From Escherichia coli (GTDB lineage Bacteria; Pseudomonadota; Gammaproteobacteria; Enterobacterales; Enterobacteriaceae): a stretch of 64,000 nucleotides of DNA. Where the stretch lies: assembly GCF_022846255.1 (NCBI RefSeq), contig NZ_AP025682.1; one strand, 5' to 3'. How positions within the stretch are numbered: the stretch's first letter is position 1; each line of letters starts with the position of its first letter. Position numbers and translations under genes: made by a program. Shown piece by piece: positions 1,129-36,788 of this stretch. The notes beneath the pieces are model-generated. The model was given only the letters and a program-made list of their open reading frames with translations. It was not told where the DNA came from and searched no databases.

Positions 1129-1512
1129 ATGATTACAGGTATCCAGATTACTAAAGCCGCTAATGACGATCTGCTGAACTCTTTCTGGCTGCTGGACAGC
1201 GAAAAAGGCGAAGCGCGTTGCATCGTTGCGAAAGCAGGTTTTGCAGAAGACGAAGTGGTTGCAGTAAGCAAACTGGGTGACATTGAGTACCGTGAAGTTC
1301 CAGTAGAAGTGAAACCAGAAGTTCGCGTTGAAGGTGGTCAACACCTGAACGTAAACGTTCTGCGTCGTGAAACTCTGGAGGATGCAGTTAAGCATCCGGA
1401 AAAATATCCGCAGCTGACCATCCGTGTATCCGGTTATGCAGTTCGCTTTAACTCTCTGACTCCGGAACAGCAGCGCGACGTTATCGCTCGTACCTTTACT
1501 GAAAGCCTGTAA
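1129..1512 (+). CDS. grcA: autonomous glycyl radical cofactor GrcA (YfiD)
   Basis: 127 aa from the internal ATG ([16 protein letters not shown]...[29 protein letters not shown]); GGGAGG Shine-Dalgarno 7 nt upstream; the ORF track start at 1111 is TTG. Confidence 0.95.
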
Positions 1513-1533
1513 GGCTTAAGTAGCAAGTTACTA

Positions 1534-1564
1534 AGCGGAAGAGGGCGACCTCTTCCGCTTTTTT
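1534..1564 (+). terminator. rho-independent terminator after grcA
   Basis: Stem AGCGGAAGAGG / CCTCTTCCGCT, loop GCGA, followed by T5. Confidence 0.65.
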
Positions 1565-1566
1565 CA

Positions 1567-2154
1567 TTAATAGAAAATGCGTACCGCGCAATAGACCAGC
1601 AGCAGCGCGAGCACGATATTTAACTGGCGACCATACTGGCGAAACAATCGCTGAAACAGGTGCCCCGCCAGCGCCCAGCACACATTGCCAAACGTCCCAA
1701 TCATCGCCAGCAAAACGCTGACGCCAATTATCCAGCTTAGCGCCTGCGTTTGCGGCAGGACAAACGTCGACAGTGCTGTAATGCCATACAAAATGATTTT
1801 GACGTTCACAAACTGCAAAGCAAAGCTGGCCCAAAAACTGATTGGTTTTGTCTGAAGCCCATCTTCCTTTGTTGGACTGGTAGCGATTTTCCACGCCAGC
1901 CAGACAATATATGCCGCCCCCGCCCAACTCAACAGATGCACTGCTGCCGGGTCGATAACAGCCAGTGAAAACGAAATTCCCGCGCATAGCAACATGACGA
2001 TTAAAAATCCCAGACTCATCCCTGCCAGCACGCGAGTACTCTGACGAAATCCGTGCGTTGTAGCTGAGCTAAGGGCGAGAATATTGTTCGGTCCTGGCGT
2101 CATGGCGGTAATCAGGGTGTAAGTCCAAAAAGCACTTAAAAGGGTCGGTGTCAC
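1567..2154 (-). CDS. eamB: cysteine/O-acetylserine exporter (LysE/RhtB family)
   Basis: 195-aa hydrophobic ORF at the conserved position between grcA and yfiE. Confidence 0.9.
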   Translation of the reverse strand: MTPTLLSAFWTYTLITAMTPGPNNILALSSATTHGFRQSTRVLAGMSLGFLIVMLLCAGISFSLAVIDPAAVHLLSWAGAAYIVWLAWKIATSPTKEDGLQTKPISFWASFALQFVNVKIILYGITALSTFVLPQTQALSWIIGVSVLLAMIGTFGNVCWALAGHLFQRLFRQYGRQLNIVLALLLVYCAVRIFY

Positions 2155-8647: not shown

Positions 8648-9603
8648 TGAAGCAACTTTGGTTTGCCATGTCATTAGTGACAGGTAGCCTGTTATTCTCT
8701 GCTAACGCCTCGGCCACTCCCGCGTCCGGGGCGTTATTACAGCAGATGAACCTGGCCAGTCAGTCACTGAATTACGAGCTGTCATTCATCAGCATCAATA
8801 AACAGGGTGTTGAGTCTCTGCGTTATCGACATGCACGCCTCGATAACCGTCCTCTTGCACAATTGTTGCAAATGGATGGCCCGCGCCGGGAAGTGGTACA
8901 GCGCGGCAATGAGATCAGCTATTTTGAACCGGGACTTGAACCGTTCACGCTTAATGGCGATTACATTGTTGATTCTCTGCCATCGCTCATCTATACCGAT
9001 TTCAAACGCCTTTCTCCTTACTACGACTTTATCTCCGTCGGGCGCACGCGTATTGCTGATCGTCTTTGCGAAGTTATTCGCGTGGTTGCCCGAGATGGTA
9101 CACGCTACAGCTACATCGTGTGGATGGACACCGAATCGAAATTACCGATGAGGGTTGATCTCCTTGATCGCGATGGTGAAACGCTGGAACAATTTCGCGT
9201 GATTGCTTTTAATGTCAATCAGGATATCAGCAGCAGTATGCAGACGCTGGCGAAGGCAAATTTGCCGCCGTTGCTTTCTGTTCCTGTAGGTGAAAAAGCC
9301 AAATTCAACTGGACTCCAACCTGGTTGCCACAGGGTTTTAGCGAAGTTTCCAGTAGTCGACGTCCGCTACCGACGATGGACAACATGCCTATTGAATCAC
9401 GTCTCTATTCCGACGGATTATTCAGCTTCTCGGTAAACGTTAACCGCGCTACGCCATCGAGCACCGATCAGATGTTGCGCACCGGACGCAGAACCGTCAG
9501 TACAAGCGTACGTGATAACGCCGAAATCACCATTGTCGGTGAACTGCCGCCGCAAACGGCGAAACGCATTGCCGAGAATATTAAGTTCGGGGCAGCGCAA
9601 TGA
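8647..9603 (+). CDS. rseB: sigma-E regulatory protein RseB
   Basis: 318 aa with signal peptide; start overlaps the rseA stop. Confidence 0.95.
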   Translation: MKQLWFAMSLVTGSLLFSANASATPASGALLQQMNLASQSLNYELSFISINKQGVESLRYRHARLDNRPLAQLLQMDGPRREVVQRGNEISYFEPGLEPFTLNGDYIVDSLPSLIYTDFKRLSPYYDFISVGRTRIADRLCEVIRVVARDGTRYSYIVWMDTESKLPMRVDLLDRDGETLEQFRVIAFNVNQDISSSMQTLAKANLPPLLSVPVGEKAKFNWTPTWLPQGFSEVSSSRRPLPTMDNMPIESRLYSDGLFSFSVNVNRATPSSTDQMLRTGRRTVSTSVRDNAEITIVGELPPQTAKRIAENIKFGAAQ

Positions 9604-10079
9604 TCAAAGAGTGGGCTACCGTCGTCTCCTGGGAAAACGGGCAGGCGCTGGTTAGTTGTGATGTTAAAGCCTCATGCAGCAGCTGCGCTTCACGCGCCGG
9701 TTGCGGTAGCCGCGTGTTGAATAAACTTGGCCCGCAAACCACGCATACCATTGTCGTACCCTGTGATGAACAGTTAGTGCCGGGGCAAAAAGTAGAATTA
9801 GGAATCGCCGAAGGCAGCCTGCTTAGCTCCGCATTACTGGTTTATATGTCGCCGTTGGTGGGACTATTCCTCATCGCTTCACTATTTCAGCTACTCTTTG
9901 CTTCAGATATTGCAGCATTATGCGGTGCGATTCTCGGTGGCGTTGGTGGATTCCTGATTGCACGTGGCTGCTCTCGAAAGTTTGCTGCCCGGTCTGAATG
10001 GCAACCGATCATCTTAAGCGTGGCCTTGCCGCCTGGCCTTGTGCGATTTGAAACATCTTCGGAAGACGCGAGCCAGTGA
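9600..10079 (+). CDS. rseC: sigma-E regulatory protein RseC
   Basis: 159 aa with cysteine-rich N-terminus and C-terminal membrane segments; overlaps the rseB stop. Confidence 0.93.
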   Translation: MIKEWATVVSWENGQALVSCDVKASCSSCASRAGCGSRVLNKLGPQTTHTIVVPCDEQLVPGQKVELGIAEGSLLSSALLVYMSPLVGLFLIASLFQLLFASDIAALCGAILGGVGGFLIARGCSRKFAARSEWQPIILSVALPPGLVRFETSSEDASQ

Positions 10080-10276
10080 TTTCACTGGCTTTGTTGCATT
10101 TTGCATAACAAATGCGAGGACGTTTCCAGATACCACAATCCATACGGTATGAACATTTCCTCGCCTCAATGTTGTAGTGTAGAATGCGGCGTTTCTATTA
10201 ATACAGACGTTAAGCTCAGAACAGCGACTTCTAAAAGCCTGGTTAACCGGGCATTAAGGCACAATAATCATACTTT

Positions 10277-12076
<1,800 letters not shown>

Positions 12077-13110: not shown

Positions 13111-13211
13111 AATTATTTATGAGATAAATCTCCCGTGGCTAACGACATCCCCCGTCGTTGTGTATAGAATATTCCCCCGAAGTTTAAGGTTGGCACCTCC
13201 AGGTTGCCACG

Positions 13212-13305
13212 GCACACGAAACAGCGTTGGTCCCCATATACCGGTAAACTGAAACTGCAGCGAAGCAGTTAGCAGAGCCATGTATATCAGGTCTGTTTCG
13301 TGTGC
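13212..13305 (+). promoter_or_regulatory. rnc leader long-range stem (candidate RNase III autoregulatory site)
   Basis: 13-bp inverted repeat GCACACGAAACAG (13212..13224) / CTGTTTCGTGTGC (13293..13305) in the 5' UTR of rnc. Confidence 0.45.
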
Positions 13306-13308
13306 TGA

Positions 13309-14921
<1,613 letters not shown>

Positions 14922-16784: not shown

Positions 16785-16805
16785 AAAATACCGTTCTCTT
16801 TATAA

Positions 16806-16890
16806 AGTAAAACCCCCGAACTGGTAAGGAACGGGGGTTTTCAGTTTACAACTTTAATTTTGTGCAGCACACGATTCCAACGGAAATAAT
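16806..16890 (-). ncRNA. ohsC: candidate OhsC-like antisense sRNA; approximate bounds
   Basis: Inferred from the K-12 locus. A minus-strand transcript over 16862..16880 would be complementary (18 of 19) to 17111..17129 in the shoB 5' UTR and could end at the hairpin at 16813..16841. Confidence 0.3.
16813..16841. terminator. rho-independent terminator after acpS, possibly bidirectional
   Basis: Stem CCCCCG / CGGGGG with a 13-nt loop and T4 on the + strand; U-rich on the opposite strand as well. Confidence 0.6.
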
Positions 16891-34217: not shown

Positions 34218-34640
34218 ATGCGTAATATTCAACAGGTTTTAGAGCGCTGGGGTGGCTGGGCAGCGAGTGAAGGTGGTAGCGTCTACTTTCCTCCTGTTGC
34301 AGCCGGGTTTAAGAATCTGCTACCCGCGACGCAGTCTGGAAGGCTGAAATGCAGTGACAATGACGGTCTTATCATCAACTCCGCTATGAGCTGCCTGAAG
34401 AAAAAAGATCCGTATCTGTGCACGCTCCTTGAGTGGCATTACGTCCAGGCCATGCCCGTGCGGGCGATGGGTGAGAAGCTCGGCGTATCTCACACCCACG
34501 TTCTGAAGAGGCTTCAGGCGGCAGAGGGATTTATTGACGGTTGCTTAGCCATGCTGGATGTGGTGCTCGAAATGGATCAGTCGGTTCAGTCAAAGCCTCA
34601 GGCGATCAGGACTTTGCGTAGGAGCTGCTCGGCGGCATAA
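34218..34640 (+). CDS. late-gene antiterminator Q (QuuQ-like)
   Basis: 140 aa; MRNIQQVLERWGGWAA... resembles lambdoid Q as recalled; lies upstream of the lysis cassette. Confidence 0.75.
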   Translation: MRNIQQVLERWGGWAASEGGSVYFPPVAAGFKNLLPATQSGRLKCSDNDGLIINSAMSCLKKKDPYLCTLLEWHYVQAMPVRAMGEKLGVSHTHVLKRLQAAEGFIDGCLAMLDVVLEMDQSVQSKPQAIRTLRRSCSAA

Positions 34641-35104: not shown

Positions 35105-35334
35105 ATTGCCCCATTCTGGGGAAAAGTTAATAAAACAGGGCTTTCGCTGCGAAAAAACGCTATGCAGTTTTTGCCCTTTTTTATGCACCTTTTATTCACT
35201 CGAATTTCGTCATTCTGGACCACTTAAGTTGATTAAATAGGCCTTTCATCGCAAATCTATTGCGAGCGGGGATCGTGTGGTTCCTATAACGTACATTATG
35301 TTAAATCACCTTCTTTTTTAACAAATTTAACAAG

Positions 35335-35357
35335 GTTCGCTATGGCGAACTTTTTTT
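35335..35357 (+). terminator. rho-independent terminator upstream of the holin (candidate tR')
   Basis: Perfect GTTCGC / GCGAAC stem with loop TATG followed by T7; position analogous to the lambda 6S RNA terminator. Confidence 0.6.
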
Positions 35358-35458
35358 GTATTCAGGGCCCACCGAAGGACGGCTCATAACCCAATCCTAC
35401 GGGCGTATACGCAGGGCCCGCCTTTCAACAACACCCCGTAATGGCGGAGGTGGGAAGT

Positions 35459-35800
35459 ATGAAAATGCACAATGCTCCTCATTCCTGGCCTGACTTACTG
35501 GAACTCTTACAAAGTTGGTGGCGTGGAGATACGCCGTTGGGCGCAGTGGTTATGTCAATTGTTATGGCTGGTTTGCGCATTGCCTATTTTGGCGGTGGCG
35601 GCGGCTGGAAACGAAAAACGCTTGAGATTTTGCTCTGTGGTGCTCTGACGCTGACCTTTGCATCCGCTCTTGAGTATGTTGGATGGCCTAAATCGCTTTC
35701 TGTTGCCATTGGTGGCGGCGTTGGGCTGATCGGTGTCGATGCTATTCGTGGGGCTGCAATGCGAGTAATCGGTAACAAATTTGGTAGCTCGAAGGAGTAA
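35459..35800 (+). CDS. holin
   Basis: 113 aa from MKMHN... with dual-start M-K-M motif, GGAGG Shine-Dalgarno and hydrophobic segments; precedes the endolysin. Confidence 0.7.
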   Translation: MKMHNAPHSWPDLLELLQSWWRGDTPLGAVVMSIVMAGLRIAYFGGGGGWKRKTLEILLCGALTLTFASALEYVGWPKSLSVAIGGGVGLIGVDAIRGAAMRVIGNKFGSSKE

Positions 35801-35803
35801 TTT

Positions 35804-36280
35804 ATGCAGGAACTAAATCCCCAGCGTAAAGCTTTCCTGGATATGTTGGCCTGGTCAGAAGGAACGGATAACGGGCGACAACCGACACGTAATCACGGTT
35901 ATGACGTTATCGTCGGAGGTGAGTTGTTCACTGATTACTCCGATCACCCTCGCAAACTTGTCACGCTAAACCCGAAGCTTAAATCAACAGCTGCAGGCCG
36001 GTATCAACTTCTTTCACGCTGGTGGGATGCCTACCGCAAGCAGCTTGGCCTGAAAGATTTTTCGCCAGAAAGTCAGGACGCTGTGGCGCTGCAGCAGATT
36101 AAAGAGCGTGGCGCTTTACCGATGATTGACCGTGGCGATATTCGTCAGGCAATCGACCGTTGCAGCAATATCTGGGCGTCGTTACCTGGTGCAGGTTACG
36201 GTCAGTATGAACATAAAATCGGTGACCTGATTTCCAGGTTTAAAGATGCTGGTGGGGTGGTAAATGAAGCTGACTTATAA
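35804..36280 (+). CDS. endolysin (lambda R-like lytic transglycosylase)
   Basis: 158 aa; near-identical by eye to lambda R over NQRKAFLDMLAWSEGTDNGRQ...HGYDVIVGGELFTDYSDHPRKLVT. Confidence 0.9.
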   Translation: MQELNPQRKAFLDMLAWSEGTDNGRQPTRNHGYDVIVGGELFTDYSDHPRKLVTLNPKLKSTAAGRYQLLSRWWDAYRKQLGLKDFSPESQDAVALQQIKERGALPMIDRGDIRQAIDRCSNIWASLPGAGYGQYEHKIGDLISRFKDAGGVVNEADL

Positions 36281-36788
36281 GATTGTCATCGCGGCATTTT
36301 TCTTCTCTGTCTTTGGGGCGCTCGTCTGGTCTGCAAACCATTACCACAGCAAGTATCAGGCAGAAAAGTTGCGGGCTGATAAAGCGGAAGGTGAAGCTGA
36401 ATATCAAGGGAAAGTGATAGCTAATCAGGCATTAAACTTCAATCGTTTTAACCAGATAGCAGAAAACGCAAGCCGATTAAATTCTCTGGTCGACATCGGT
36501 CACGAGAAGACAGTCATCAAATACCGTGAGGTTCTGCTCCGTGAAAAGAACTGTGATTTCCCTGTTCCTGTTGATATTGCTGTCGGGTTGCTCAACTACG
36601 CGAACCGTTTACGTGCCAGCGCATTGCACGCCGATTCCGGGGACATTGACTCAGCCGGTGATCGTGCCACTACCACCAGAACGTTGACATATTGCCAGGC
36701 TGTTCTGTGGATTAACCCACTGTTGGCAGCCATCGAGAAGGCGAATAACCAGTTGGCTGGTGTCCGACAAATAGAACAGTCCCGGTAA
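36264..36788 (+). CDS. i-spanin (Rz-like)
   Basis: 174 aa; N-terminal membrane helix and coiled-coil; directly follows the endolysin. Confidence 0.75.
   Translation: MKLTYKIVIAAFFFSVFGALVWSANHYHSKYQAEKLRADKAEGEAEYQGKVIANQALNFNRFNQIAENASRLNSLVDIGHEKTVIKYREVLLREKNCDFPVPVDIAVGLLNYANRLRASALHADSGDIDSAGDRATTTRTLTYCQAVLWINPLLAAIEKANNQLAGVRQIEQSR
36541..36687 (+). CDS. o-spanin (Rz1-like lipoprotein) embedded in Rz in the +1 frame
   Basis: 48 codons, GTG start with GAGG Shine-Dalgarno; MKRTVISLFLLILLSGC lipobox followed by a proline-rich mature region; below the ORF-track cutoff. Confidence 0.6.
   Translation: MKRTVISLFLLILLSGCSTTRTVYVPAHCTPIPGTLTQPVIVPLPPER

Follow-up and report, generated by a model that had tools for sequence, protein, structure and literature searches.

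In the survey of Kongari et al. (2018, PMC6139136), the phages HK225, ZF40 and mEp237 form a family of three, in which inner-membrane spanins (i-spanins) and outer-membrane spanins (o-spanins) alike are of the embedded kind. The same authors found no family that spans both the embedded and the overlapped architecture, and they concluded that the two evolved independently. Here, we describe a spanin pair found in a stretch of 64,000 nucleotides (nt) of Escherichia coli DNA (assembly GCF_022846255.1, contig NZ_AP025682.1), hereafter called the window, in which an open reading frame (ORF) of 48 codons at 36541..36687 lies within a Rz-like gene at 36264..36788. The analysis indicates that this ORF is an o-spanin gene placed inside an i-spanin gene, and that the pair is very probably a frame-swapped derivative of the overlapped spanins of the LysB/LysC type known from phage P2. 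As judged from the sequences, such a link would contradict the published statement that no family spans both architectures. No published report of it was found in the open-access literature, and a description elsewhere is possible.

The features of the spanin locus are as follows:

36264..36788, + strand: predicted i-spanin (Rz-like) of 174 amino acids (aa), matching phrog_214 'Rz-like spanin' over the full length (E 5e-59)
36264..36662, + strand: part of Rz homologous to an entire LysB-type i-spanin, from the matches of P2 LysB and four overlapped loci (L016-L019) to phrog_214
36528..36531, + strand: Shine-Dalgarno-like GAGG, 9 nt 5' of the Rz1 GTG
36541..36687, + strand: predicted o-spanin (Rz1-like) of 48 aa, wholly inside Rz, conserved in 13/13 diverged phages, phrog_456 E 2e-7
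36541..36588, + strand: predicted signal peptide and lipobox MKRTVISLFLLILLSG, then Cys17, according to a PROSITE-type rule
36589..36684, + strand: predicted mature o-spanin of 32 aa, with a predicted lipidated Cys, Ser at position +2 and a second Cys at mature position 13
36679..36687, + strand: putative frame-swap junction, where the Rz1 stop TGA (36685..36687) lies within the Leu-Thr codons (TTG ACA) that open the Rz tail
36684..36785, + strand: C-terminal helix, or 'tail', of Rz, LTYCQAVLWINPLLAAIEKANNQLAGVRQIEQSR (hhalign E 2e-10; PF23793 positions 36-68, E 0.013; phrog_3001, E 2e-8)

The ORF consists of 147 nt, that is 48 sense codons and a TGA, and starts with GTG on the + strand. Its offset from the Rz start, (36541-36264) mod 3 = 1, places it in the +1 frame. 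The position, start codon and frame given in the original prediction were thus reproduced, as was the GAGG which it had proposed as the Shine-Dalgarno sequence of the GTG; the equivalent site reads GGGAGA in HK225, mEp237, Flotzy, PHB10 and LLS. The translated precursor is MKRTVISLFLLILLSGC up to the predicted cleavage site and STTRTVYVPAHCTPIPGTLTQPVIVPLPPER from the Cys onwards. With K2, R3, a hydrophobic core and the lipobox LLSG before Cys17, it passes a PROSITE-type lipoprotein rule (K or R among the first seven residues, an uncharged hydrophobic core, and A, G or S preceding a Cys that occupies position 15-35), which speaks against the absence of a lipobox cleavage site. The mature part contains 7 Pro in 32 aa (22%) and ends in PLPPER, so the lipoprotein signal followed by a proline-rich segment was recovered as well. 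The lipoprotein attachment site model PF08139 matched Rz1 with E 0.003, under its cut-off.

Of the possible starts, 36541 (Cys17) and 36526 (Cys22) pass the rule, while 36553 and 36571 fail. The ORF lister reports 36526..36687 (53 aa), beginning at the earlier in-frame GTG, and with its default threshold of 60 aa this agrees with the remark that the ORF track had missed the gene. Of 14 sequences (the window and its 13 relatives), 9 retain the GTG located 16 codons ahead of the Cys, preceded by GGGAGA or GTGAGG; in the remaining ones, a TTG stands 24 codons ahead of it. The other GTG, at 36526, is peculiar to the lineage of the window and has no Shine-Dalgarno sequence. Both starts lead to an identical mature lipoprotein. 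In E. coli, the Lol sorting rule assigns lipoproteins without Asp at mature position +2 to the outer membrane; across the family this position is an invariant Ser.

The comparison set consisted of 13 diverged phages (Rz DNA about 71-77% identical) and one near-identical phage. An equivalent +1-frame ORF was present in all 13 diverged phages, which span, among others, Escherichia, Serratia, Hafnia, Pectobacterium and Providencia; the Cys of the lipobox does not vary, and the lipobox reads LLMGC in EKP1 and PSTCR3. The distance from this Cys to the end of the stop codon is 99 nt in 12 of the 13 phages and 102 nt in ZF40, and the position of the stop is common to all of them. Homologous phages lacking an ORF in this frame, which would have spoken against the original prediction, were thus not encountered, and conservation in 13 diverged phages excludes chance. 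The variability of codon positions 1/2/3 of Rz, measured as the mean pairwise difference, was 0.42/0.34/0.60 upstream and 0.22/0.14/0.58 downstream in the regions read as Rz only, where third positions vary most. Across the segment of mature Rz1 it was 0.465/0.193/0.167, i.e., the wobble is that of the +1 frame. Likewise, the 13 phages share a mean amino acid identity of 72% in this segment when it is read in the +1 frame, against 47% for the Rz frame and 46% for the third frame, where stops also occur. Both results indicate that selection in the stretch of mature Rz1 is dominated by the embedded gene.

A chance open frame that merely resembles a lipoprotein signal and is not expressed was considered as another explanation, given the GTG start, the looseness of the lipobox rule (15 of the 2187 start sites in the window pass it) and the fact that PGAP made no call for the gene in the listed records of the E. 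coli genomes (124 carry the module). It is already refuted by the comparative data: the stop position is the same in 13 diverged phages, the +1-frame periodicity and the identity of 72% versus 47% point to purifying selection, and the matches to o-spanin profiles are significant. Moreover, when Rz was recoded synonymously, just 115 of 20000 sequences (0.6%) yielded any alternate-frame ORF passing the rule. By these comparisons, the +1 ORF is a genuine conserved gene under purifying selection that encodes a predicted o-spanin of the lipoprotein type.

The comparison with the members of the HK225/ZF40/mEp237 family showed that the Rz of the window is 31-54% and its Rz1 58-75% identical to theirs, and that all o-spanins are embedded in the +1 frame. 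The i-spanin family phrog_214, the +1 position, the mature length of 32 aa and the position of the stop are common to the window and this family. Nothing essential differs: the window has an additional upstream GTG (36526) and a few substitutions. The lineages differ in the neighbouring genes, as the spanins of the window accompany an endolysin and a holin of the lambda R/S type, whereas those of HK225 accompany a lysozyme and a holin of the HK225 type. Based on sequence identity and layout, the pair is a further member of this catalogued embedded family, and the gene itself is not new. Some relatives have been annotated before. E. coli O103:H2 str. 12009 has a protein of 53 aa, P0001, that shares 96% identity with Rz1 and is annotated as 'putative lipoprotein Rz1 precursor'; phage LLS carries an annotated embedded o-spanin of 147 nt, the same length as in the window, with genes 55 and 56 as the pair; and Rz/Rz1 are annotated in the Serratia phages OS31 and BZS1. 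In the latter two records (L003 and L004), the 'lipoprotein Rz1 precursor' at 1313..1636 (107 aa) begins at a GTG that precedes the lipobox Cys by 74 codons, which is far too early for a signal peptide; a more plausible start is the TTG that precedes this Cys by 24 codons.

An unexpected result was the relation of the pair to the P2-type spanins, which crosses reading frames. In the first scans, the +1 ORF matched positions 1-33 of PF23793 (LysC), while the C-terminus of Rz matched positions 31-68 of the same model and also phrog_3001 (E 3e-7). The two half-matches meet at about 36670-36687, precisely at the stop of the +1 ORF. A frameshift or sequencing error in the window was rejected as the cause, with the tail lying in the Rz frame in 21/21 phage records and in E. 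coli prophages. The same two halves are joined in protein P0002 (78 aa), found in a single E. coli genome, in which an insertion or deletion connects the Rz1 frame to the Rz frame and which bears the NCBI name LysC. It matches PF23793 over its full length with 36.6 bits (gathering cut-off 27 bits), and it extends the phrog_456 match to profile position 90, raising the score from 31.6 to 45.6 bits. For comparison, P2 LysC is a bona fide member of PF23793 (64.9 bits) and belongs to phrog_456 (E 2e-31), of which the window Rz1 matches the N-terminal half only (E 2e-7), and P2 LysB matches phrog_214 collinearly over positions 13-121 of 176 (E 2e-4).

Rz1 is not a full-length match to the LysC family, as it reaches 18.6 bits against the cut-off of 27 bits and covers positions 1-33 of 69 in PF23793 and positions 11-53 of 102 in phrog_456. 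The N-terminal half of that family, with the lipobox and the proline-rich segment, is present in Rz1 (phrog_456 E 2e-7; hhalign E 5e-17). The C-terminal helix (T[YW]G...LL..L..CN.DK..IR) is absent from the o-spanin and is found instead in aa 141-174 of Rz.

Collinear virtual chimeras were constructed for 12 phages by joining Rz1 without its last two aa to the Rz tail from [L/I/M]TYCQ onwards, and were used in hmmsearch against 1.84 billion representative proteins. Among the proteins recovered were natural lipoproteins of 75-115 aa, forming about 45 clusters, in which a single frame matches the two halves, with the consensus GC..TRTVYVPvP.vPlPa.LtaDC..P.iP.p[LFM]T[YW]G.S(L/V).(L/W)N..LL.aL..CN.DKaaIR.IE..R. 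When these LysC-type proteins were aligned with the unspliced proteins in hhalign, columns 20-62 matched Rz1 (probability 98.8%, E 5e-17) and columns 61-105 matched Rz columns 137-181, i.e., the tail (probability 96.8%, E 2e-10). The two matches abut at LysC-type columns 61/62.

The list of matches from these searches also contained proteins of other kinds. A word-indexed homologue search with P0002 brought up no natural bridging forms, but only scattered pieces of the same Rz family, frameshifted or truncated. P0002, P0016, P0017, P0031, P0032, P0034, P0036 and P0049 are sporadic Rz-Rz1 frameshift chimeras from single genomes or contigs, due to mutation or assembly error. The close single-frame forms P0035, P0048 and P0120 were set aside as having no contig on record, P0035 being unverified as a natural protein. 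The top of the chimera search was occupied by P0030 (3655 aa) and P0033 (5013 aa) through 43 and 8 repeated short matches, respectively, which are probably repeat or low-complexity artefacts.

Four overlapped loci were examined, namely L016 (Mu-like prophage), L017, L018 (P2-like phage) and L019. Each of them is of the overlapped architecture and lies downstream of a lysozyme gene. Their i-spanins match only positions ~5-134 of 176 in phrog_214 (E 9e-26, 1e-12, 6e-26 and 6e-23), and their o-spanins match positions 137-175 of the same profile (E 1e-5, 4e-7, 3e-3 and 2e-6). According to these profile matches, three segments have homologues in LysC-type loci: Rz1 in the N-terminal half of the o-spanin, the first ~135 residues of Rz in the partner i-spanin, and the Rz tail in the C-terminal half of that o-spanin. 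The three segments follow each other on the DNA as they do in LysC-type loci, with the last one in the other frame. The odd first match of the Rz C-terminus to phrog_3001 is explained by the content of that profile, which consists of N-terminally truncated LysC-type o-spanins (aa 27-83 of the L016 o-spanin cover positions 1-57). The profile phrog_952 behaves likewise, with aa 36-96 of P2 LysC covering positions 2-62, and both profiles probably reflect mis-called start codons kept as separate families.

The pair thus has in common with P2 LysB/LysC and the LysC-type spanins (PF23793, NF038368, phrog_456/phrog_89) a homologous N-terminal region of ~125-135 residues in the i-spanin, the signal, lipobox and proline-rich N-terminal half of the o-spanin, an o-spanin start in the +1 frame at a near-equal offset (277-298 nt), and the sequence of the C-terminal helix. 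In LysC-type pairs it is the o-spanin whose C-terminal half consists of this helix, the i-spanin having stopped before the helix begins, whereas in the window it is read in the i-spanin frame. The o-spanin of the window stops at the junction while LysC-type o-spanins continue through it, and the positions of the cysteines differ.

The geometry of the junction is strict. In 13/13 phages of the embedded family the tail begins exactly at the Rz1 stop, which is a TGA or TAA formed inside Leu/Ile/Met-Thr codons, and the joint alignment has a single two-residue gap at this point. The o-spanin starts at nt 277 of the i-spanin gene in both the window and L016, and at 280 nt in P2. In the overlapped forms, the i-spanin stop is variable and falls at o-spanin codon ~28 to ~70. 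In L019 (Logan SRR5240346_199, 1206..1824), the i-spanin stops two codons before the PLTFG tail of the o-spanin, which makes it the closest natural model of the presumed ancestral geometry among the loci examined. The two layouts were also converted into each other in silico. Any 1-nt deletion in the last 13 nt of P2 lysB turns LysB into a protein of 189 aa with the helix of LysC, and LysC into an embedded protein of 55 aa, and a 1-nt insertion at 36670..36682 in the window gives overlapped products, a Rz of 150 aa and a Rz1 of 82 aa. A 1-nt deletion in L019 results in a mature o-spanin of 33 aa ending in APPITR, compared with 32 aa ending in LPPER in the window.

The cysteines follow the layout. 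LysC-type proteins have Cys at ..aDC and CN.DK (26/30) and none after TY (0/30). In the embedded family, the Rz1 Cys is present in 13/13, and a Cys at TYC or within five residues upstream of it is present in 44/48; in ZF40-like proteins the tail Cys is displaced to GCRLTYA. This suggests that a rewired Cys pattern accompanied the swap, with disulfides that would now join parts formerly belonging to one chain. The pattern is compatible with an inter-chain disulfide between Rz1 and Rz or with lambda-like homodimers.

The results are consistent with the following origin. In an overlapped ancestor, the i-spanin stop would lie inside the o-spanin gene, and the o-spanin would bear the C-terminal helix. 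A net frame change of 1 nt near the i-spanin stop would let the o-spanin end at a TGA concealed within the Leu-Thr codons and, at the same time, fuse the former o-spanin helix onto the i-spanin, giving an embedded gene with a lambda-like domain layout. The Ala/Thr/Ser/Gly-rich linker in the Rz frame may then be a by-product of reading proline codons out of frame. It seems likely that the pairs of the HK225/ZF40/mEp237 type arose in this way from a LysB/LysC-type overlapped pair by one net 1-nt change, with both genes staying functional. We infer that the change went from overlapped to embedded, because the overlapped i-spanin stop varies and the embedded junction is invariant.

The reverse swap, with the embedded form ancestral and the LysC-type overlapped spanins derived from it by a 1-nt insertion, is unlikely but has some points in its favour. 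The conversion in silico works both ways, P0002 shows a change from embedded to overlapped in one E. coli genome, and the embedded family is diverse, with at least 38 clusters at 50% identity. Against this order, the LysC type (PF23793, phrog_456) ranges wider, over P2-like phages, Mu-like prophages and Burkholderia phages, and the variable stop of the overlapped i-spanins beside the invariant embedded junction is what a single derived event would leave; each of these is a weak argument. A programmed -1 frameshift near PLPP that additionally yields a full-length LysC-like o-spanin of 80 aa is very improbable. Its spliced product would be a full-length protein of the LysC family, and conservation of the tail cannot discriminate here, both products reading it in the same frame, but inspection of the last 15 codons in the 13 phages found no slippery heptamer of the form X XXY YYZ (0/13), so programmed frameshifting is not indicated. 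Moreover, the position of the Rz1 stop is strictly conserved, and the Rz frame is open through the entire gene in all relatives, so that the tail belongs to the i-spanin anyway.

The similarity between the Rz tail and the LysC C-terminus might also come from convergent amphipathic helices in an embedded family that is independent of the overlapped one, in line with the absence of a bridging family in Kongari et al. (2018, PMC6139136). Each of the two segments is a short helix with ~35 aa, and the Pfam LysC score of the tail alone is marginal (15.9 bits, E 0.013). Convergence would, however, have to account for three collinear segments that match together and come from the same loci with the same nucleotide geometry (nt 277 in the window and in L016), for the hhalign E value of 2e-10 for the tail, for a BLASTP alignment that crosses the junction with 44% identity over 52 aa, and for the specific common motif [L/M/F]T[Y/W]x..(L/V).(W/L)N..LL..(I/L)...N..(L/K)..IR.IE. 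We consider such a coincidence scarcely credible.

Several observations weigh against the frame-swapped o-spanin as we read it. Rz1 alone stays below the PF23793 gathering score, and no NCBIfam model matches the 48-aa protein. The signal peptidase II signal is predicted by a PROSITE-type rule, which is loose by itself, and the choice of the start codon is uncertain, 36526 being possible. Pairwise similarity of the window pair to P2 LysC or LysB is insignificant, so the link rests on profiles and on the closer overlapped relatives. The LysC-type alignment used in hhalign was drawn from matches to the chimera profile, which introduces a selection bias, mitigated by the independent Pfam and PHROG models. 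The structural model of Rz is of low confidence. Finally, the order from overlapped to embedded is a probable one only, and diversity is found in both forms (at least 38 embedded and about 45 LysC-type clusters at 50% identity).

The i-spanin partner has an N-terminal transmembrane helix (~aa 7-22), a helical periplasmic region, a disordered linker and a C-terminal helix. An AlphaFold model built on a 12-sequence alignment, with a low-confidence mean predicted local distance difference test score (pLDDT) of 61.5 and used for the secondary-structure layout only, places helices at 3-73, 78-93, 103-121 and 143-173 and the linker at about aa 122-141 (pLDDT<50). The disordered linker is the part overlapped by mature Rz1. 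Two Cys of Rz, C97 and C144, are conserved.

The functional class of the o-spanin was assessed by the criteria used by Kongari et al. (2018). As for the cassette position, the ORF lies inside an i-spanin gene that accompanies a holin and an endolysin; as for the partner, Rz has a hydrophobic segment at aa 7-22, a match to phrog_214 and helices predicted with low confidence. The function would follow the lambda Rz/Rz1 paradigm. The 48-aa precursor would be exported, lipidated on Cys17 and cleaved by signal peptidase II, and Rz1 would be sorted to the outer membrane because its +2 residue is Ser and not Asp. The proline-rich mature Rz1 of 32 aa may bind the periplasmic end of Rz, which is anchored in the inner membrane. 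Once the holin and endolysin have removed the peptidoglycan, the Rz-Rz1 complex would merge the inner membrane with the outer one and complete lysis. By analogy with lambda, we infer this entire course, from lipidation and sorting to complex formation and membrane fusion.

The likeness to lambda concerns layout. In both systems the o-spanin is embedded in the +1 frame and spans about 0.5-0.8 of the i-spanin length, and the mature lipoprotein is short and proline-rich (22% Pro in the window, 24% in lambda) with one internal Cys. The i-spanin has the order transmembrane domain (TMD), helix, linker and helix with two periplasmic Cys, and the pair directly follows the S and R homologues. The sequences differ: Rz1 is 23% identical to lambda Rz1 over 39 aa, and Rz 24-30% identical to lambda Rz over 33-82 aa, mostly in the TMD region. 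The window Rz1 has no penta-proline stretch, and its mature part counts 32 aa compared with 41 aa, by our count, in lambda. PF06085 (lambda Rz1) did not match the window Rz1 at E<=1, while lambda Rz1 itself scored 72.2 bits, and PF03245 (Phage_lysis, lambda Rz) did not match the window Rz at E<=1, compared with 183 bits for lambda Rz. Searches of NCBIfam gave no informative match for Rz, Rz1 or the chimera, and NF038368 was not hit by Rz1. At any level detectable by these searches, homology to lambda Rz1 or Rz appears to be absent. The description 'Rz1-like' in the original prediction thus holds for function and architecture and not for homology, with no PF06085 match and 23% identity over 39 aa; the comparison with lambda Rz1 that it had proposed likewise confirmed a short, proline-rich, embedded lipoprotein and revealed no significant sequence relationship.

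The two genes upstream of the pair are the following:

35459..35800, + strand: holin of the lambda S family (TIGR01594 E 5e-40; PF05106 E 1e-27; phrog_126 holin/anti-holin)
35804..36280, + strand: endolysin, lambda R-type lytic transglycosylase (89% identity to lambda R over 158 aa; PDB 1am7 E 5e-96; phrog_90)

The similarity to lambda R and to PDB 1am7 bears out the lambda-R-like endolysin of the original prediction; no Pfam family matched the endolysin, and its identity came from the PDB and lambda comparisons. The holin begins with ATG AAA ATG at 35459..35467, the Met-Lys-Met motif of dual-start holins, so the proposed dual start agrees with the sequence, its use being a prediction. In the close phage 606R2, the equivalent gene of 342 nt is annotated as holin/antiholin with a start matching 35459. 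With S, R and then the embedded pair in this order, the lysis cassette, which belongs to a prophage of lambdoid type, has the lambda-type layout that had been suggested. Taken together with the profile results, it is a mosaic, lambda-type in layout and with a spanin ancestry that does not appear to be that of lambda. Among 5426 complete E. coli genomes, 124 carry the module, in each case on the chromosome.

As a gene, the embedded o-spanin is a routine annotation gap, and its value is an annotation fix; the interest lies in the cross-frame homology to LysC-type spanins. If the link is true, this would be the first documented family connecting embedded and overlapped spanin architectures, and a functional helix could operate from whichever of two interacting subunits carries it. 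Such a link would point to a general route leading from the P2-type to the lambda-type domain layout (TMD-helix-linker-helix and a short proline-rich lipoprotein), in which the new layout was possibly stabilised by a newly acquired Rz1-Rz disulfide. The pair would also illustrate cleanly how a domain can pass between overlapping reading frames whose products, following the lambda paradigm, bind each other, and it provides a testable model for the origin of embedded spanin genes and for the segments that mediate the contact between i- and o-spanins.

Some further observations concern annotation and the surroundings of the locus. In the records listed out of the 124 module-bearing E. coli genomes, RefSeq/PGAP names the i-spanin 'hypothetical protein' and lacks the o-spanin. 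The i-spanin family is covered by PHROG phrog_214 only, with no Pfam or NCBIfam model. The phages EKP1 (L008) and BUCT708 (L009) are recorded on Elizabethkingia and Stenotrophomonas, respectively; their spanin DNA is ~74% identical to that of enterobacterial phages and their lipoboxes are of typical enterobacterial style, so the host labels or the provenance of the records look questionable. A third in-frame ATG of the holin lies at 35441 (MAEVGS-MKM...), 5' of the Met-Lys-Met motif; it overlaps GGAGGTG, a possible Shine-Dalgarno sequence for 35459. The non-coding gap before the holin contains a terminator-like hairpin at 35332..35353 on the + strand, with a 9-bp stem followed by a T-run. Lying between a Q-like antiterminator gene (34218..34640) and the holin, it occupies the position of lambda tR'. 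Gathering-level Rfam hits were obtained for AsrC, the antisense of rseC (9564..10395, - strand), rncO (13179..13393, + strand) and ohsC (16804..16881, - strand), which places the window's left part in the E. coli chromosome (rseC-rnc region), with the prophage to the right.

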